From the NCBI GenBank assembly GCA_965116875.1, contig OZ220733.1, positions 4,096,001-4,160,000 on the forward strand: DNA of 64,000 nucleotides, in the 5' to 3' direction. Both the position numbers and the translations under genes were made by a program. The notes beneath the pieces are model-generated. The model made no database searches. It had not been told where the DNA came from and worked only from the letters and a program-made list of their open reading frames with translations. The first letter of the stretch is position 1, and every line of letters begins with the position of its first letter. Source of the stretch: Candidatus Latescibacterota bacterium. Its GTDB lineage: Bacteria > Latescibacterota > UBA2968 > GCA-2709665. Shown here piece after piece: positions 54,596 to 63,231 of this stretch.

Positions 54596-54939
54596 GAGTG
54601 GATTATCCGTTCTTGCCGAGACCATCAGGATTGTCCTGTTTCACTTTGACGGAGACTTCACTGGCGGTGACCGCTGTCCGCCTCTCTGAAGAGGCGACCG
54701 GTCTTTCGGATTTCCCGCGGCTGGATGCTGAAGGCGTAGCGCGCAGCGATTGGCGCCTTCGGCTGTGTGGCGATTTTCATGTCGGACGATGTCTCACGGT
54801 CGGGCTGGCTATTCGACGCTTGAGTATCCGGTTCGGTTTCTGAAAACCGGCTTCATCTGATCGAATTAAACACCTGATTATCAATTATATAGCCCGTTGG
54901 GACAGAAAACAGTCCAAGCGCGGCGTCCAGGCAGCATAA

Positions 54940-54971
54940 GAAAAAACACGCCGGTAGCAGCGTGTTTTTTC
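54940..54971. terminator. Bidirectional intrinsic terminator closing the redoxin operon
   Basis: GAAAAAACACGC-CGGTAGCA-GCGTGTTTTTTC. Confidence 0.8.
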
Positions 54972-54995
54972 TGTTCCGATTTACCCTGCCTGAAC

Positions 54996-55973
54996 TTATG
55001 GCACGCTCTTGCCGAAGTTCTTGGCGAATTCAAGAAAATCCGTGAAGTCGACCAGGCCGTTTCCATCCAGGTCGAAGGTCGGGTTGTCGGTGCTGAAGGC
55101 CTGGGCGAAGGCGACGAAGTCGCTGAATCCGATTTGTCCGTCATGGTCGAAGTCGGCCCGGGGATTGAGGGGTACAACGATGACCGCTCCGGAAACAGCG
55201 AGCGTGATGCTTCTGTTTTCCGGATCGTCGCTCAGGATTGTCAGGTTGCCGGAGAAGGGTCCGGATTCCGCCGGAGTGAATGTGATCGCCACTCTCGCGC
55301 TGTCTCCTGCCGCGACCGTTACCTCGGTCGTGTTAATAGAGATTTCCTCGAGATCGGATTGAATGTTGCTGATCGTGAGCGATTCTCCTCCGGTATTGTA
55401 CACGACCAGGGTGAGCGTTTTGGATACTCCGGCTGAAACGTCCTCGCCAAAGTCGAGTGAAGGTTTCGAAAGATCGATCGCCGGCGGCGGAACGCTCAGC
55501 AGTTCCCGGATACGCGCGGCCGTTGCGGTGATTGACGCAGGTTTTCGTATCCCGATGTGACGGATAATGCCCTTGCGGTCCACGACAAGCGTATGGTCAA
55601 CGCCGAGAGTTCTCGGAAACGCGCGGCCGGCCCGGAGGAGAAGCGGGAACGTGACACCGGTGACTCTTTGAAAGTCCCGCAGTTCCGATTTGCTGCCATT
55701 GTAGACGTCGAGTCCCAGAACCGTCAGGCTGTCATCCTGGAACGCCCTCCAAATCTGTCTTTCTATAGACGGACCCGTCTGTCTGCACAGGTCTCAGTTA
55801 TGGCCCAGGTAGTAGAGCACGAAGACGCGCCCCATGTAATCTGCGGGCGTGTAGGTCTTGTCATCCAACCCCGTGAGCGAGAAGGTCGGTACTGTGTCGC
55901 CGACCTTCTGAGCCCGTGCAGACGCAGGCGCGAAGAGTCCCAGAATCACTGCGGCAATCAAGGGTCGGTACAT
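54996..55973 (-). CDS. Secreted putative selenoprotein B: redoxin (UDLC) + Ig-like domain + dockerin/EF-hand-like tail, 325 aa; TGA at 55796-55794 (codon 60)
   Basis: RBS gaaagagg; signal peptide MYRPLIAAVILGLFAPASARA-Q; VGDTVPTFSLTGLDDK...VLYYLGHN-TGA-DLC; frame open on both sides of the TGA. Confidence 0.85.
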
Positions 55974-56027
55974 GGGATACCTCTTTCAGGAAGGGAAAGT
56001 CCTGCGGGTGTATACGCCCGGGGAAAC

Positions 56028-57011
56028 TCATGGCACGCTCTTGCCGAAGTTCTTGGCGAATTCGAGGAAGTCCGGGAAGTCGACTACGCCGTTCCCATTC
56101 AGGTCGAAGGTCGGGTTGTCGGTGCTGAAGGCCTGGGCGAAGGCGACGAAGTCGCTGAATCCGATTTGTCCGTCATTGTCGAAGTCCGCCCGGGGATTGA
56201 CCGGGACTACGATGGCGGTTCCGGAAATCGCGACGGTAACGGTGCCCTTCTCCGGGTCGTCGCTGGAAATGGTAATCGTCCCGGAAAACGGACCGCCCTC
56301 CGTGGGCGTAAAGGTGATGTCGACGGTAGCGCTGTCGCCCGGTGCGACCGTAAGTTCCGTCATGCTGAACGTGACGCCCTCCAGGTCGGACTCCAGGTTC
56401 GTAATGCTGAGGTCCTCCCCTCCCGTATTCTTCACGACGAGGGTTACGGTCCTGGTTTCGCCGGCCGGAACGTCCTGGCCGAAGTCGAGCGAAGTACCTG
56501 GAACATCGATTGCCGGCGGCTGAACGGTCAGCAATTCCCGGACGCTCGCCGCCGCTGCGCTGAGACCGGAAGCGCCGCGCCCGATGTGACGGACAATCCC
56601 TTCGCGGTCCGCGACCAGCAGAGTGTGGGTCCCGTGAGATCCCCTGATATTGCCTGCCTGAAGCAGGAGGGGAAACGAGATCGTGGACACGGACTGAAAA
56701 TTCCTGAGCTGAGCCTGACTGCCATTGTAGATGTCAAGTCCCAGGACCGCAAAGCCGTCATCATCCTGGAACGCCTTCCAGATCTGTTGTTCTATGGACG
56801 GACCCGCCGCCCGGCAGGTCGGTCAGTTATGGCCCAGGTAGTAAAGAGCCAGAACACTTCCCTCATAATTCGCGGAGGCATAGGTTTTGCCGTCCAGCCC
56901 CGTAAGCGAAAACGTTGGTACCGCGTCACCGACGTTCTGGGCTTCCGCGGGCCCGCCCGGGCAAAACCCCAGGACCAGCAGGAACACGACGCAGGCAGCG
57001 ATTCGACCCAT
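56028..57011 (-). CDS. Secreted putative selenoprotein A: redoxin (UPTC) + Ig-like domain + dockerin/EF-hand-like tail, 327 aa; TGA at 56825-56823 (codon 63)
   Basis: RBS aaaggagg; signal peptide ending AEA-Q; VGDAVPTFSLTGLDGK...ALYYLGHN-TGA-PTC; ORFs 56823-57011 and 56028-56690 share a frame with no other stop. Confidence 0.85.
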
Positions 57012-57045
57012 TGCAATCCTCCTTTGAGATGGTGTGTGGTCTGCG

Positions 57046-58629
57046 TCAGAAATAGGTCTTCAGACGCATTTCAAGGCCATTGAACGGCAACACGAGATAG
57101 CATGTCCCGGATGTGCACGCGGCGCCGCCTCGCCTGCGGCCGGCGAATACGAAGGCTTCGTATCGATCGAGAAAGGCGACGTTCAGGTTGACCGACAGCC
57201 AGGAACGAGCCCCGGTCTCGACCCGGTCCGGCGTTGCGCCGTCATCCACTTCGAATGGATCGTTGGTGCGATCCAGTATGACTGCGGCGCCCACACCCGA
57301 GGGATGCTGGAAGGAAAACTGGGTAAAGACGTCCTGGAACACCGGCTGGTTTCGGGGCTGCCTGGCCGCGCGCCGGACCTGCAGATCGAAACCCAGGACA
57401 GACCCTCCGGGTGTAATGGATTCGACCCCCACACCGCCGATCCGGTGCATTCCGATTCCCTTCAGTTCGTCTTTTCCCCAATCAAAAAAGACGGTAGACG
57501 TCAAGCTGTGCCCGCCGGGCTGCCGAGGCAGTTCAACGTCCACGCCCAGATACCGCTCGTTGAACGTCGTTGAAAAGCCGGGCGCCAGTTCGTTCTCTCC
57601 CTTGCTGACGTTTGCCGTCAGCGTGCCCAGTCCGAAAATCGAATACGTTGCTTCCACCTGGTAGCCCGTTTCAGCATCGGCAATCAGGGCATGCGTGGAC
57701 CGGTTGAGCAGGACGGCCGCGTGTTCGCGGACCAGGGACGGGGGATCGTTGAAGCTGTAGGCGAATTTCTCATAGTCCTTGTATTCCAGGCTCAATCCCA
57801 GATTGGAAATGCCGGCGTTGGCCGAAAGATACAGAGCGCTGCCGTCCACGTGCGCGTCAATCAGCCCGGCGTATTCGGCGTAGACGGTCGCATAGCCGTC
57901 CGGAAAGCCCGATGCTTCAATTGCGGGCGTGACGTCGAATTCCAGAAAACCCGACCACGTTCGCGTGGAGTCAATCCTGGCGGCGTGATGGCTTACGGCC
58001 GTGACGCCGGCCTTGATCCGGCTCGTCGGTCGCAGCGAGACTTCCCCTCCGAGAAGCCAGTTTTCACGCCGTGGTACGTCCCGCAGAGGATCACCCACCC
58101 GCACCGCCGGCGGGATGTCGCTTAATACTGGACGGCCGATCAGGGCTTTTGCCTCGGCCCGGGGACCCGCCCAGGTGGCCATGCCGCCCTCGAGGTCTCG
58201 GGACGGCGAATAGCGGCGCCGGTATTGTCCGCTCTCCAGAACGACGCCAGGCAGATCGAAGGCCCTGAGCGTGATGCCGCGACCCAGGATGGCGTAGTAG
58301 TTGCCCGCAACCAGCTCGACCGGTCCCTGCGACCAGCGCAGGTGCTTCTGGGAAACATGCACGACCTGGTATTCAACCTGCGACAGCGGCGAGCCGGGAG
58401 CGGTGTTGCGCCATGCATTGAAAATCTCTGCCCGTAGTCCGGCCTGAAGACCGTGCCGCGTGTAATCGACGTCGAACTGCTCATAAAGTGACGAAACCGC
58501 CAGCGAGTCCGAGCCCGGGACGCGTCCCCGCTGGATTTCGGTCAGGCTGGATACGGTCACCTGCGCGACGACAGGCTTCGACGTCGCCAGCAGAAGGAGC
58601 ATTATCAGGCTATTGGTCAGCGCTCGCAT
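57046..58629 (-). CDS. Outer-membrane beta-barrel-like protein with C-terminal CxxGxC (DUF6029-like)
   Basis: Signal peptide ending VVA-Q; AGNYYAILGRGITLR, LEYKDY, PPSLVREH, GGAACTSGTC, terminal LEMRLKTYF. Confidence 0.75.
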   Translation of the reverse strand: MRALTNSLIMLLLLATSKPVVAQVTVSSLTEIQRGRVPGSDSLAVSSLYEQFDVDYTRHGLQAGLRAEIFNAWRNTAPGSPLSQVEYQVVHVSQKHLRWSQGPVELVAGNYYAILGRGITLRAFDLPGVVLESGQYRRRYSPSRDLEGGMATWAGPRAEAKALIGRPVLSDIPPAVRVGDPLRDVPRRENWLLGGEVSLRPTSRIKAGVTAVSHHAARIDSTRTWSGFLEFDVTPAIEASGFPDGYATVYAEYAGLIDAHVDGSALYLSANAGISNLGLSLEYKDYEKFAYSFNDPPSLVREHAAVLLNRSTHALIADAETGYQVEATYSIFGLGTLTANVSKGENELAPGFSTTFNERYLGVDVELPRQPGGHSLTSTVFFDWGKDELKGIGMHRIGGVGVESITPGGSVLGFDLQVRRAARQPRNQPVFQDVFTQFSFQHPSGVGAAVILDRTNDPFEVDDGATPDRVETGARSWLSVNLNVAFLDRYEAFVFAGRRRGGAACTSGTCYLVLPFNGLEMRLKTYF

Positions 58630-59149
58630 CGGCGTTCGCCCCGTCGTCGGCGCCGGGTTCGGGAAACAGCGCCTCGACTGCCGTCAGCAACACTTGGGCG
58701 TTTTTCGAATGATATCCGACCTGCCGCAGCGCAATCTCTCCGTCCGGGGTGATCAGGAGCGTCGTCGGCAGGACGTTCACCTGCATTCGCCGCATGACCG
58801 CGCTGTCAGAGTCGAGGACGATCGGGAAGTTGACCTTTCTCGCCCGCAGAAAGGGTTTCACACGGTTCTGCCCACGCGGCCCGTCCACGTTTACGCCAAG
58901 TACGGTAAGCCCTGATTTGCCGTACTTCTCGTGAATCTTCTGGAGCTTGGGCATCGCCTTGACGCAAGGCTTGCAGTAGGTCGCCCAGAAATCCAGAAGT
59001 ACCGGACCCTTTGTCAGCAGGTTTTTGAGGTTGACGCGTTCGCCCTGCAGGTCCCGGAGGTTGAAGTCGGGGGCCGAGGCGGCGTTCAGCGTCGCTGCGC
59101 CCAGGGAAATTGAGGCGGCGATGGTCAGGGTATGAACGATCGTCTTCAT
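58610..59149 (-). CDS. TlpA/ResA-family exported thiol-disulfide oxidoreductase
   Basis: Signal peptide; APDFNLRDLQG, LDFWATYCKPC, cis-Pro loop VLPTT. Confidence 0.92.
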   Translation of the reverse strand: MKTIVHTLTIAASISLGAATLNAASAPDFNLRDLQGERVNLKNLLTKGPVLLDFWATYCKPCVKAMPKLQKIHEKYGKSGLTVLGVNVDGPRGQNRVKPFLRARKVNFPIVLDSDSAVMRRMQVNVLPTTLLITPDGEIALRQVGYHSKNAQVLLTAVEALFPEPGADDGANADASADQ

Positions 59150-59204
59150 TCCCGCAGTTTCTCCTGTTTGCCTTGTCGATCGGCGTGTGTCGCCCTTTAA
59201 TTGA

Positions 59205-59232
59205 AATACGCCTGAAGGTTTCTCATGGTTCC
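59205..59232 (-). promoter_or_regulatory. Candidate ECF-sigma promoter for the redoxin operon
   Basis: Minus strand GGAACC-16 bp-CGTATT, 55 nt upstream of the TlpA start. Confidence 0.55.
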
Positions 59233-59600
59233 GGACCGGAGTTCGCCAGCAAAATCCGCGCCGAACGGATTGCGGATCAATAAACGATAACCGAAAAATC
59301 TCGCTTCATCAAGGGCTTTTTTGCGTTGTTTCCGTGATGCCCTCAACGTGTCAGTGCGGACTGATGTCTGAAGAAGGGGACGGAGAAACAGCGGGCTTGT
59401 TGCCGAAAGGCGGTTTCCGCTTGCTGCGCGTCTCCGGTCGATCTATATTTGGGGTCGATATTTTCTCTCTTTGTCGCGGGCGACCGGTTCAATATGTCGC
59501 CCGGGTTCCGCAAGGTCCGCTGTGATGGTCTCAGCAGCGTGGCCGTTCGCAAGGCCGCCTGTTTTACGGACGGTCGTTGAATTTTACCGGAAGGGTCGCC

Positions 59601-60821: not shown

Positions 60822-62294
60822 TTAATTGCGGAATGCGAAATCGACAGGTTTACCCTGCGCGAACTCGGCTTCGACGTTGCCCAGCCCGAAAAGGGTCGCG
60901 GAAAGATCTCGCGGAGAGAGGGGTTCGGCTAGGGCGAGGCCCGCTGGCAATCCGGGTCCCACGAGCAGCGCACGACCGGCAGCGGCATCCAGTACCGCCA
61001 GGGTCGTGCGATTCCGGTAGCGGTGGTGTTCCTGGACGATTTTCCGGAGTTGCTCGATCGTCCTGCGACTGTCGGGGCCGTCGGTTAGCTGGAGAAGCAT
61101 CAGGTCTGGCTGCGCCCTTGGCAGGCACGCGACAGCCAGAGATGCCAGAAAGCTGTTCCTGAGTTTAAGATTTCTGTCGGACGATACCAGGGTTCTGACG
61201 ATCAGTCGAGAAAGGACTTTGTCCTTAACGGCCTTGGTTATTTTAAGCTTTTTGGGGTCCAGCGTCGGGTACACGACGTTTTCGATGAACGCCTGCGATC
61301 TGCCCTCCGAACGGGCTTCGTCCAGTGCTTGCCGGACCGTTTCCGCCGCTCTGGTCAACAACGAAGCCCGCACGGTCAGTGGTCCGAATTTCCTGTATTT
61401 CCTGTGAGAGCTCCGCTCCGGCGGGGCGCTGTCGTCCATGTAGAGCGCCAGCGTGCGGGTACGGGTCTTGTCCTTAATGGCGCGATTGTGATATTCGAAC
61501 AGCGTCGGATGTGCGAGCTTGTCGCCCTTCAGCGCGTCGTCGCGTCCCGTCAACAGGGTGGCCAGCCATCGTCTTGCCGGATCGGGGGCGGGCGCGGTCT
61601 GCAACAGGGTCCCCTGAGCGAGCAGGCTGTCGTTGAACGTTGAATCGGATGTACCGTATTGGCCCGGCATGATTGCAATCGCCAGAAGCGCGGGGGGAAA
61701 GTCCGTACCTTTATAGACAAACCGATTGAACGCGGCTTCGATTCTTGCTTTCTGTTCGGGCATGATCTGTATTTCCGGACTTCGACGTCTCCGCTGCACG
61801 GGGTCCCCGCGTTGCCCTATTCCCCCTCGCCGGCCAGGACCCTGTCGTCGTCCAATTCCCTGCCGGTCTCCCGCGTCGGTACGTTGCCGGGGCCCCGTTC
61901 GCCGGGCGAAGATGCCTGCGATCGCCTCGCCGAAAGCCTCCCGCAGGTCCCCATCCGACACTTCGCCGGCCCTCGCGAAAAAGAGCCTGAATCGTTCCTT
62001 TTCCCGCGGGAAGAAATCGTCCCAGGCAGCCAGTGAGTTCAGTACATAGGACCTGATGGGCAAGGGGAACCGGTTGAACGTCCCTTCGTTCCCCTTCACG
62101 AGGTCGTAGGCGCCCGAGGGTAGATCGGAGTACCGGTCGTTCCGAATCGGGCTAAGGTCGACGCCCCCGCCTCCGCCTCGTCTCCTTCCGCCTCCCCTCC
62201 CCTGTGCAAGCGCGTCCTCACACGCGAGCGCCAGGACAAGAAATGTCGCCGCGACCGATACGATCCCGTGAGAGGACTTCTGAAAAACCGGCAT
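60822..62294 (-). CDS. Uncharacterised secreted protein with Gly/Arg-rich segments
   Basis: ATG 62294 after ggagg; signal-like segment ending ALA-Q; long open frame. Confidence 0.65.
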   Translation of the reverse strand: MPVFQKSSHGIVSVAATFLVLALACEDALAQGRGGGRRRGGGGGVDLSPIRNDRYSDLPSGAYDLVKGNEGTFNRFPLPIRSYVLNSLAAWDDFFPREKERFRLFFARAGEVSDGDLREAFGEAIAGIFARRTGPRQRTDAGDRQGIGRRQGPGRRGGIGQRGDPVQRRRRSPEIQIMPEQKARIEAAFNRFVYKGTDFPPALLAIAIMPGQYGTSDSTFNDSLLAQGTLLQTAPAPDPARRWLATLLTGRDDALKGDKLAHPTLFEYHNRAIKDKTRTRTLALYMDDSAPPERSSHRKYRKFGPLTVRASLLTRAAETVRQALDEARSEGRSQAFIENVVYPTLDPKKLKITKAVKDKVLSRLIVRTLVSSDRNLKLRNSFLASLAVACLPRAQPDLMLLQLTDGPDSRRTIEQLRKIVQEHHRYRNRTTLAVLDAAAGRALLVGPGLPAGLALAEPLSPRDLSATLFGLGNVEAEFAQGKPVDFAFRN

Positions 62295-62454
62295 ATATCG
62301 CCTCCCTGAGCAATTGTCATCGACTGACGAACCGTTATGGAACCGGCGCGTACGCCGACTCGCGTTTGGGTCTCTGAGCATCGTGCGTTCGTGAACCTCC
62401 CTTCCGGCGCGAAGGAAGTCGAAAACGTCGCGAAAACCGACCTGCAAGGATCGT

Positions 62455-63231
62455 TCAGAGGTGTGTTCGAAGCCACAGAAGGATCTCGGCCCGGGCGACC
62501 GGGTTGTCCAGGAGCGCCAGACCATTGGCCGTTCCCTGATATCCGCTGACCCGGACGGGTTCCAGGGTTCCCCGCGCCAGCAGTTCGGACGACGTAAAGG
62601 AATATCCGTCGCCGTGTGAGGCCACGAACAGGATCGACCGGGGCTTGAAACCGGCGACGTTGGCGCCAAGCAAGACGTCCTGCCGGAGACGTGTGATGAG
62701 GGAGATAACGACCGATGTTCTGACGTCCGGATTGCTGCCGGAACTGACGTACGCGATGTTGGCGCCAAGCGCCGCGCCCACGAGTCCGATGCGTGCGACA
62801 TCCACGTCGGATCGGCTCTTCAGCCAGCCGATTGCGCCTTCGACGTCGCGCGGCATGCTGTTGAAGTCTTCGATCTGGAACCGGCTTCGGGGAAAATAGA
62901 CGTCATTTTGAAACGTACTCAGGCCGTGTCCTCTGACGTCGTAAGCCAGCACGTGAAATCCTGCGTCGGTCAGGTCCGGCACGAAGGGTACCCATATGCC
63001 GAGATTCTGGTCGTACGGATGGATGAGGACAACAGCGGGTCGGCGCCCGGTCTGCCGATTGGAGGTGAACCAGGCCGCGAAGATTGTGAAGCCGTCCGGG
63101 GTTTTGAACGAAACCGTCTCTCCGGTAACCCATTCCGCCGGAGTCGAGACCTCACTGTCGGTCGGATGTCGGCCGCATTGCATCGTAAGCAGCGCAACTG
63201 TCAGGACCGCCAGACATGCACGTGGCGCCAT
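62455..63231 (-). CDS. Alpha/beta-hydrolase-fold exported protein with degenerate catalytic triad
   Basis: F.TPDG, AVVLIH, YDVRGHG.S, DV.GAI.WL, IGLVGAALGAN. Confidence 0.8.
   Translation of the reverse strand: MAPRACLAVLTVALLTMQCGRHPTDSEVSTPAEWVTGETVSFKTPDGFTIFAAWFTSNRQTGRRPAVVLIHPYDQNLGIWVPFVPDLTDAGFHVLAYDVRGHGLSTFQNDVYFPRSRFQIEDFNSMPRDVEGAIGWLKSRSDVDVARIGLVGAALGANIAYVSSGSNPDVRTSVVISLITRLRQDVLLGANVAGFKPRSILFVASHGDGYSFTSSELLARGTLEPVRVSGYQGTANGLALLDNPVARAEILLWLRTHL

Follow-up and report, generated by a model that had tools for sequence, protein, structure and literature searches.

The window, a 64,000-nucleotide stretch of Candidatus Latescibacterota contig OZ220733.1, carries on its minus strand four neighbouring genes that code for a TlpA-like reductase, a DUF6029 barrel and two redoxin-Ig-dockerin paralogues, here termed selenoproteins A and B. 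The features of this locus, given in the direction of transcription, are:

59205..59232, minus strand: candidate ECF-type promoter 5′ of tlpA, GGAACC-N16-CGTATT (motif match only)
58610..59149, minus strand: TlpA/ResA-like periplasmic thiol-disulfide oxidoreductase, 179 aa, assigned by profiles and alignment
57046..58629, minus strand: DUF6029 outer-membrane beta-barrel, 527 aa, with a C-terminal F; C-terminal sequence ...AACTSGTCYLVLPFNGLEMRLKTYF
57100..57117, minus strand: codons of the barrel motif C505-T-S-G-T-C510, invariant in the aligned homologues
56028..57011, minus strand: selenoprotein A, 327 aa, with a signal peptide, a redoxin domain (U63-P-T-C), an Ig-like domain and a tail
56823..56825, minus strand: in-frame TGA of gene A, read as U63 and aligned with Cys in homologues
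56796..56812, minus strand: SECIS-like hairpin 3′ of the gene A UGA
54996..55973, minus strand: selenoprotein B, 325 aa, with a redoxin domain (U60-D-L-C), an Ig-like domain and a dockerin-like tail
55794..55796, minus strand: in-frame TGA of gene B, read as U60 and aligned with Cys in homologues
55767..55780, minus strand: SECIS-like hairpin AGACG-GGUC-CGUCU 3′ of the gene B UGA
54939..54972, minus strand: intrinsic terminator hairpin 3′ of gene B, with a 15-bp stem and A- and U-tracts

These genes form one tight unit: tlpA and the barrel gene overlap by 20 nt and the other intergenic gaps measure 34 and 54 nt, an arrangement that points to probable co-transcription of all four. The preliminary description of this DNA had claimed four co-directional, closely packed genes bearing the motifs CKPC, CTSGTC, UPTC and UDLC, a barrel ending in F, and a terminator after the fourth gene; each of these was found in place, the terminator being a strong hairpin with a U-run (−38.5 kcal/mol for a 74-nt stretch, z −8.2). 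The ECF promoter that it also proposed stands in part: the motif is present, and is partly kept in the genus relatives (GGAACC in seven of ten, CGT at equal distance in six of ten), but it is a motif match only. A sigma-70 scan gave no match at the same site. The signal peptides of the four genes were judged by eye only. The locus is neighboured by tilS, ftsH, folP and a Gfo/Idh/MocA gene.

The first gene codes for a protein that matches the Pfam profiles AhpC-TSA (PF00578; 89.2 bits, cut-off 26) and PF08534 (71.4 bits, cut-off 26.6), and its nearest relatives among solved structures are 2m72 and ResA 1st9, both at about 117 bits. Its active site, C59-K-P-C62, lies within WATYCKPC, and the alignment shows the DFWATxCxPC motif and the cis-Pro P128 to be invariant in all 26 sequences, as are D89, R92 and D113. 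Two of these residues belong to a subfamily motif, D89-G-P-R92, which is missing from the seven other TlpA-like paralogues of the same genome. Assignments as an equivalog of ResA (NF002854; 109.8 bits against a curated cut-off of 170) or of the rhizobial TlpA (NF047696; 53.7 against 230) were rejected. The genome encodes one DsbD_TM protein.

The barrel matches DUF6029 (PF19494) at 51.8 bits, against a gathering score of 27; this domain is carried by every listed homologue except a 379-aa fragment (P0041), and the nearest clusters in an atlas search with the barrel were DUF6029 at 0.98. No solved structural relative was found by sequence search. The preliminary description had made its reading hinge on conservation of the two barrel cysteines, and they are indeed conserved: the C-x-x-G-x-C motif is invariant in 39/39 aligned homologues, and 133 of the best 150 representatives of the family carry C-x4-C, 16 of the remaining 17 being truncated. 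The terminal F is seen in 95 of those 133 motif-bearing barrels. Given the usual barrel topology, we reason that the C-x4-C would be placed in a turn on the periplasmic side, in which case a surface redoxin could not reach the pair directly.

Selenoproteins A and B are paralogues with 65% identity, and the following scores are given for A and B in that order. Their redoxin domains match AhpC-TSA (40.6/46.8 bits, cut-off 26), and their Ig-like domains, at residues 167–264 of A, match both the Pfam HYDIN/VesB Ig profile (54/47.7 bits, cut-off 25.5) and the NCBIfam choice_anch_D model (53.4/49.3 bits, cut-off 45). The dockerin/EF-hand-like tails (residues 275–323 of A) score over the cut-off for EF-hand_1 (29.6/27.7 bits, cut-off 25.4), reach only 14.8 bits with Pfam Dockerin_1 (cut-off 22.9), and lie close to the cut-off of 29 for NCBIfam dockerin_GC (29.5/26.7 bits). 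In the genome itself three cohesin domains score above their Pfam cut-off, and SprA is encoded there too (481 bits). The T9SS sorting domain TIGR04183 was not found by NCBIfam models in either redoxin of the window; it is over the cut-off (23 bits) in four of six redoxin orthologues from other phyla and in two of three redoxins of family f4, the third of which has a dockerin tail. The third protein of the trio is export-tagged, and T9SS sorting domains and dockerin-like tails are exchanged on one enzyme within a single phylum.

The redoxin family is defined by the signature G-[YH]-x-[U/C]-x-x-C ... GPS-x-E, and its alignment lacks the cis-Pro usual in thioredoxin-fold oxidoreductases, so its chemistry may be atypical. 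Peroxiredoxins are marked by a PxxxT/SxxC motif and a conserved Arg; that assignment was rejected for these proteins, which have a [U/C]xxC active site and, by eye, no invariant Arg at the corresponding alignment position, and which score 14.8/13.7 bits with PRK09437 (cut-off 140). No NCBIfam redoxin-family model was over its cut-off for the family. The Omp28-type partner suggested in the preliminary description was not borne out, as neither redoxin matched Omp28 in Pfam or NCBIfam (E ≤ 0.1).

Gene callers split A and B, and all 19 public proteins that we found are fragments beginning after the TGA, in agreement with the earlier remark that standard annotation fragments the last two genes. Taken by itself, this would favor the view that the TGAs are true stops or errors and that A and B are either disrupted genes or small independent ORFs, a view that we regard as close to refuted by several other observations. 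Conservation flanks the TGA on both sides, down to about 30% identity, and among the 150 redoxin matches listed for the phylum 143 have exactly one TGA, five have none and two have another stop. Homologues show Cys in the same column: the 60 module redoxins in 78 loci comprise 42 with Sec and 18 with Cys at this position. The gene A TGA is unchanged in independent contigs of runs X3, X4 and X8. The genome has the full Sec machinery, with selB (373.5 bits), selA (549.3) and tRNA-Sec (73.4) all mutually adjacent, and a selD (366.3 bits) that itself has one TGA; TGA is also used as an ordinary stop at the locus, where it ends the barrel gene and gene A. Moreover, the UGA is followed, at +16 to +35, by a hairpin whose loop is GGUC or GUC and whose arms vary between lineages. 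In 37 Sec forms this hairpin averages −11.0 kcal/mol, compared with −7.75 for 18 Cys forms (Mann-Whitney p 0.0012; being kin, these sequences are not independent). RNAalifold returned no single consensus structure for this region because the hairpin register shifts by 1–2 nt between lineages, and no Rfam family matched the hairpin. Evidence for expression is thin, consisting of two short contigs from a single RNA library that may hold DNA. On these comparative grounds, A and B are real selenoproteins with one in-frame TGA each, exposing a large selenoprotein family that gene callers cut at UGA.

The trio recurs, with varying gene order, in Latescibacterota, Eisenbacteria, Marinimicrobia, Calditrichota and Bacteroidota, and the barrel occurs in 38 of the 41 genomes of the order. 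The tlpA gene adjoins that of the barrel in 14/14 loci examined with 5-kb flanks and in 77/78 loci of a wider survey; 52 of these 78 loci also include a redoxin, a fraction that rises to 29/32 for loci of other phyla, and in family f4 all three genes are kept in 8/8 loci despite differing order and orientation. The neighbourhood, on whose conservation in relatives the preliminary description had also made its reading hinge, is kept far beyond the phylum. As a point against the module, four loci of genus g6 (5-kb flanks) have no redoxin beside the TlpA-barrel pair, and the same holds for all 23 Latescibacterota-type loci without a redoxin; there the Sec-redoxin domain occurs elsewhere, in longer ORFs. 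Across 168 Latescibacterota genomes the redoxin domain is found in 110, together with the barrel in 100 and alone in 10; two have the barrel only and 56 neither. The ten genomes with a redoxin and no barrel are an observation that speaks against a relay. We found no published description of this module in the literature.

Structure prediction of the TlpA-barrel complex gave ipSAE values of 0.79, 0.78 and 0.77, with 0.01 for the best control; in calibration the mark was reached by 116/157 solved complexes and 2/215 mismatched pairs, counts that are only rough here because our own alignments were used. At least 85% of the contacts are common to all runs, with a partner pLDDT of at least 83, and the predictions support binding of TlpA to the barrel, which would give DUF6029 its first concrete, albeit predicted, partner. 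The predicted interface of about 160 contacts is spread across about 22 barrel segments, suggesting a plug-in-barrel arrangement, and the barrel contacts often fall on alternate residues (23/25/27/29, 246/248/250, 524/526). The TlpA-specific DGPR loop is predicted to touch the conserved LEYKDY stretch of the barrel, and barrel residues 507–509, between C505 and C510, are among the predicted TlpA contacts. The model suggests that TlpA itself is seated in the barrel, rather than that electrons pass via the barrel cysteines. Residues of TlpA at the predicted interface are not better conserved than its others (0.57 versus 0.56, p 0.38); those of the barrel are (0.60 versus 0.48), although lumen-facing barrel residues are expected to be conserved in any case.

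We propose that the locus encodes a three-part envelope thiol/selenol module, its third part duplicated, in which TlpA and the barrel pass reducing equivalents to surface selenoredoxins; we judge the case for this to be evenly balanced. TlpA would be exported to the periplasm, where the DsbD-type membrane protein of this genome could reduce it, and would most likely be lodged plug-like in the DUF6029 barrel lumen with the invariant C-x4-C loop at the contact surface. The two [Sec]xxC redoxins would be exported and held at the cell surface by the Ig-like domain and dockerin-like tail, for which a T9SS sorting domain would substitute in the orthologues. The TlpA-barrel complex would then most likely pass reducing equivalents across the outer membrane, whereby the surface selenoredoxins would stay reduced and could reduce an extracellular substrate. 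The surface location of the redoxins, the direction of electron flow, the redoxin-barrel contact and the substrate are what we infer from this arrangement. A relay of reducing power to surface selenoenzymes is plausible; its most explicit form, a conduit in which a lumenal TlpA plug relays from DsbD, perhaps via the C-x4-C, to surface Sec redoxins, is advanced tentatively. We are not aware of anything known to carry thiol reducing power through the outer membrane. If real, such a conduit would be without known precedent as a way of moving thiol-based reducing power over a bacterial outer membrane, and it would be conserved across the FCB superphylum. The module bears on how surface thiol enzymes stay reduced outside the cell, and offers a defined, widely kept three-protein candidate that is testable in cultured carriers.

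Alternatively, the barrel could serve to anchor the exported redoxin in the outer membrane or to let it pass, with TlpA only setting, during assembly and with no steady electron flow, the thiol state of the cargo's Sec/Cys pair or of the barrel's own pair. PorP/SprF-type barrels serve neighbouring T9SS cargo, the redoxins are T9SS- or dockerin-tagged and encoded beside the barrel, and SprA is present in the genome; yet the predicted barrel partner is TlpA, through a very large interface, genus g6 keeps the TlpA-barrel pair without an adjacent cargo gene, and anchoring has no need of an invariant Cys pair. We hence consider this rather unlikely. The invariance of that pair, only four residues apart, would suit a small structural loop, and LptD needs Dsb proteins; together with the predicted binding of TlpA, this permits a reading in which C505-C510 is a structural disulfide, TlpA the private isomerase or chaperone of the barrel, and the redoxins functionally separate neighbours. 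It becomes improbable when set against the continued association of the third gene with the other two in five phyla, rearrangements notwithstanding, the genome-level co-occurrence (both in 100, one alone in 12), and an interface that at about 160 contacts far exceeds a transient enzyme-substrate contact.

The plug-like contact pattern could also be accommodated by a redox-gated channel, in which solutes or polymers pass through the barrel and TlpA is a removable plug whose binding depends on thiol state. One study reports HHpred similarity of Wzi-barrel-like proteins to DUF6029 (PMC9603273), and a Wzi-like polysaccharide porin has been suggested for DUF6029. Nevertheless, no polysaccharide export genes lie among the neighbours named above and the conserved exported redoxin is left unexplained, making such a channel very improbable.

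Returning to the proposed envelope module, several known systems offer points of comparison. HBP35 of Porphyromonas gingivalis is described as a T9SS cargo with cell-surface thioredoxin activity (PMC4674972), and by that account surface thioredoxin-fold proteins exist in this superphylum. HBP35 differs in having Cys where the module redoxins have Sec, and it is no close relative of theirs, being absent from the top 60 of the 82 solved matches to their profile; in the literature accessible to us, no partnership of it with a barrel or TlpA was found described. The module resembles the pathways from DsbD/CcdA to TlpA, ResA or CcmG in the secreted ResA/TlpA-type CxxC protein with a cis-Pro encoded by gene 1 and in the DsbD_TM protein of this genome. 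Those known pathways terminate in the periplasm, with cytochrome c or Cu centres as their end points, whereas the module TlpA, which has its own DGPR motif, is accompanied by an outer-membrane barrel and by a redoxin that is exported.

In MtrA-MtrB-MtrC, a barrel-sheathed periplasmic redox protein passes its electrons on to a surface redox protein that is exported separately. The likeness is one of architecture only, resting on the side of the module on a predicted complex; MtrCAB transfers electrons through haem, in place of thiol/selenol-disulfide exchange, and the families are unrelated. LptD-LptE and the TonB-dependent transporters likewise hold a globular protein or domain inside a large barrel, as is predicted here, and LptD depends on defined disulfides; however, they belong to other families with another function (lipopolysaccharide or nutrient transport), and the plug of the module is a thioredoxin-fold enzyme from a separate, overlapping gene. 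Finally, Zhang and Gladyshev reportedly described bacterial UxxC selenoproteins of the thioredoxin fold that are TlpA-like or Prx-like. As in those proteins, Sec takes the place of the first Cys of a CxxC within a redoxin fold, and there are orthologues with Cys, but the module redoxins are set apart by their own signature, their surface-targeting tails and a fixed genomic partnership.

The locus comprises four co-directional genes on the window's minus strand, and our analysis confirmed the preliminary description of it in coordinates, motifs and in-frame TGAs:

58610-59149, minus strand: TlpA-like gene, 179 aa, with WATYCKPC
57046-58629, minus strand: DUF6029 barrel gene, 527 aa, C-terminal end ...AACTSGTCYLVLPFNGLEMRLKTYF
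56028-57011, minus strand: redoxin paralogue gene A, 327 aa with UPTC, one TGA read through
54996-55973, minus strand: redoxin paralogue gene B, 325 aa with UDLC, one TGA read through

The tlpA and barrel genes overlap by 20 nt, and 34 and 54 nt separate the subsequent genes. Pfam and NCBIfam profiles recover an AhpC-TSA/Redoxin domain in TlpA (89.2 bits), and Pfam recovers DUF6029 in the barrel protein (51.8 bits against a cut-off of 27); signal peptides were assigned by eye. In the products of both gene A and gene B, an AhpC-TSA domain is combined with an Ig-like domain (“choice-of-anchor D”) and a tail of EF-hand/dockerin type, whose assignment as a dockerin is marginal (Pfam Dockerin_1, 14.8 vs 22.9; NCBIfam dockerin_GC, 29.5 and 26.7 vs 29). 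The dockerin-like tails, encoded by the last ~175 nt of the two genes (56031-56207 and 54999-55175, minus strand), are near-identical in DNA, with the rest of the genes far more diverged, a pattern that resembles the outcome of gene conversion or of strong constraint on this region.

Gene B is followed by a 15-bp hairpin and a U-run (z -8.2), and GGAACC-N16-CGTATT, a motif match only, lies upstream of tlpA and is partly conserved in the genus. About 60 nt further upstream, a second block, GCCCTTGATG..GCG..TTTTCGGTTAT(C/T)GTT (window ~59270-59315, minus strand), is kept in most genus relatives and may be a promoter or operator. A sigma-70/terminator scan of the window stayed at chance level (promoter-like sites, 1 vs 1.2 expected; terminator-like, 6 vs 5.4) and did not pick up the hairpin after gene B. 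The adjoining genes (tilS, ftsH, folP, holA and a Gfo/Idh/MocA gene) look unrelated to the module; an ORF of 659 aa with Gly/Arg-rich stretches (60822-62801, minus strand) matches no Pfam family at E <= 1e-4.

The common thread across relatives is a solidly conserved trio, as judged from sequence and gene neighborhoods, of TlpA, barrel and redoxin. Within the order, the barrel was found in 38 of 41 genomes, and TlpA adjoins it in all 14 fetched loci. Scanning a single genome for each species yielded 292 barrel relatives, from which 78 loci were kept, spanning Latescibacterota, Eisenbacteria, Marinimicrobia, Calditrichota and Bacteroidota: TlpA is adjacent to the barrel in 77 of these, the lone exception beginning at a contig end, and a second redoxin, of the module redoxin family, is present in 52 (29/32 outside the phylum). 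The position of the redoxin varies among phyla, being either upstream of TlpA or downstream of the barrel; in a single latescibacterotal family (f4) the order is divergent, convergent or TlpA-redoxin-barrel, with the trio intact in 8/8 loci. Counted per genome across the phylum, 100 have both barrel and redoxin, 10 the redoxin only, two the barrel only and 56 neither.

One genus (g6) carries the TlpA-barrel pair without an adjoining redoxin. Loss of Sec use was considered as the cause and rejected, since selA is kept in 5/5 of its genomes and Sec-redoxin domains occur elsewhere in them; there they lie within far longer ORFs (437-1695 aa), distant from the TlpA-barrel pair (e.g., G090:C1:861964-862347 and G088:C14:82309-82689). 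Separately, one genome bears the whole module at two distant places with the same match pattern (G038:C1:1128840-1140363 and 3196269-3207792), and another has a second, distant TlpA-barrel pair (G017:C1:4181589-4192884), whose barrel is 28% identical and which has a UPVC redoxin of its own and a dockerin-like tail nearby. Cultured Balneolales isolates also carry DUF6029.

Several lines of sequence evidence make a solid case that genes A and B code for selenoproteins. The window's own genome encodes selA, selB and tRNA-Sec side by side, as well as selD (G000:C1:1070717-1071640), which is probably also a selenoprotein because it has one in-frame TGA; TGA otherwise acts as a stop here, terminating the barrel gene and gene A themselves. 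Of the 168 genomes in the phylum, 110 hold the redoxin domain, and among the 150 matches listed, 143 have exactly one TGA, five none and two another stop. In the alignment of 60 module redoxins from the 78 loci, drawn from several phyla, a single shared column is occupied by Sec in 42 and Cys in 18. Downstream of the UGA, at +16 to +35, lies a hairpin whose loop reads GGUC or GUC and whose arms vary by lineage (CCGACGG/CCGUCGG, GACG/CGUC, GCUGCC/GGCAGC, GAGCGGC/GCCGCUC). RNAalifold returned no consensus structure for 26 Sec sequences because the hairpin register differs between lineages, and per-sequence folds were therefore used: these gave -11.0 kcal/mol for 37 Sec sequences vs -7.75 for 18 Cys sequences (p 0.0012, the sequences being kin and not independent). 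The Cys forms compared keep the same peptide motif, yet their hairpin is weaker than in the Sec forms. Rfam gave no match anywhere in the window. Contigs assembled from two DNA runs and from one run of an RNA library, the latter giving two short contigs, retain the TGA of gene A unchanged. All 19 hits in public databases are fragments starting after the TGA. The alignment also shows that module redoxins lack the cis-Pro of thioredoxin-fold oxidoreductases, with a near-invariant Asp at that site and GPS-x-E after the active site.

The architecture of this third protein indicates that it is built for export. A T9SS type A sorting domain scores above cut-off in four of six redoxin orthologues from other phyla and in two of three from family f4, whereas in the third f4 protein the redoxin domain is immediately followed by a dockerin-like tail; hence, these tails appear to be interchangeable surface-targeting modules. 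The window's own genome encodes an SprA translocon and three cohesin domains, and the dockerin/EF-hand-like tail (~55 aa) ends about 100 other ORFs there (105 further matches at E <= 0.001), which together point to a genome-wide surface-display system. The tail-bearing ORFs are often in tandem arrays (e.g., C1:2050907-2054497, C1:147422-171790, C1:774085-800051 and C1:2566284-2610304).

The barrel carries a C-x4-C motif (C505 and C510) that is invariant in 39 homologues with identity down to 29%. A profile search retrieved 1429 barrel representatives at E <= 0.001, and 133 of the best 150 have the motif within their last 45 residues; of the other 17, 16 stop short of the profile's C-terminus and one full-length sequence has Y and F. 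By ordinary barrel topology, we reason, these residues would fall in a turn on the periplasmic side. The cysteine pair of the earlier proposal is conserved, and its electron route “through the barrel cysteines” is best taken as a hypothesis.

Prediction of the complex of barrel residues 23-527 with TlpA 25-165 gave ipSAE values of 0.79, 0.78 and 0.77, whereas the highest-scoring of three controls reached 0.01; the calibration, with the mark reached by 116/157 solved complexes and 2/215 mismatched pairs, holds only roughly here because our own alignments were used. At least 85% of contacts are common to the runs, with partner pLDDT of at least 83. The predictor is unlikely to have reproduced a known structure, because a search with the barrel profile found no solved relative among PDB sequences (0 hits at E <= 1). 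The modeling supports binding of TlpA to the barrel. The ~160 predicted contacts are spread over the full length of the barrel in ~22 segments, frequently at every second residue, and involve most TlpA faces, a pattern from which we infer that TlpA would sit in the barrel lumen. To house the 141 TlpA residues, the barrel would need about 22 strands or more. The D-G-P-R loop (D89-R92), invariant in module TlpA and absent from the genome's seven other TlpA-like paralogues, is predicted to touch a conserved LEYKDY stretch of the barrel. Interface positions are more conserved than the rest in the barrel (0.60 vs 0.48) but not in TlpA (0.57 vs 0.56, p 0.38).

The predicted contacts include barrel 507-509, between the two cysteines, and TlpA 56-60, around C59 of its CKPC, though not necessarily with each other. 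We weighed several readings of the module. One rival explanation is that C505-C510 is a structural disulfide served by an assembly factor of its own. The barrel might also be a redox-gated pore, or the whole a cargo-specific anchoring or biogenesis device. The most likely reading, a hypothesis to which we give an about even chance, is a relay: DsbD would reduce TlpA, TlpA would be lodged in the barrel, the complex would pass reducing equivalents to the surface selenoredoxins and these would act on some extracellular substrate. The genome encodes one DsbD-type protein that could feed TlpA. The selenoproteins, the conserved trio and the predicted TlpA-barrel complex lend partial support to the originally proposed interpretation, with the relay function itself still hypothetical.

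Titles and abstracts on DUF6029, TlpA/outer-membrane barrel relays or plugs and Latescibacteria selenoproteins yielded no description of the module; the work found that mentions DUF6029 concerns polysaccharide porins, and term searches of PorA papers gave no occurrence of Omp28, TlpA or DUF6029. Among solved structures, the one nearest to the module TlpA is 2m72, which matches over the full length with 117.5 bits. T9SS-exported thioredoxins such as HBP35 exist (PMC4674972), but HBP35 and the module redoxin are not close relatives. In its predicted architecture, the module resembles both MtrCAB and LptDE; it would work like the periplasmic DsbD-TlpA cascades, but extended outward.
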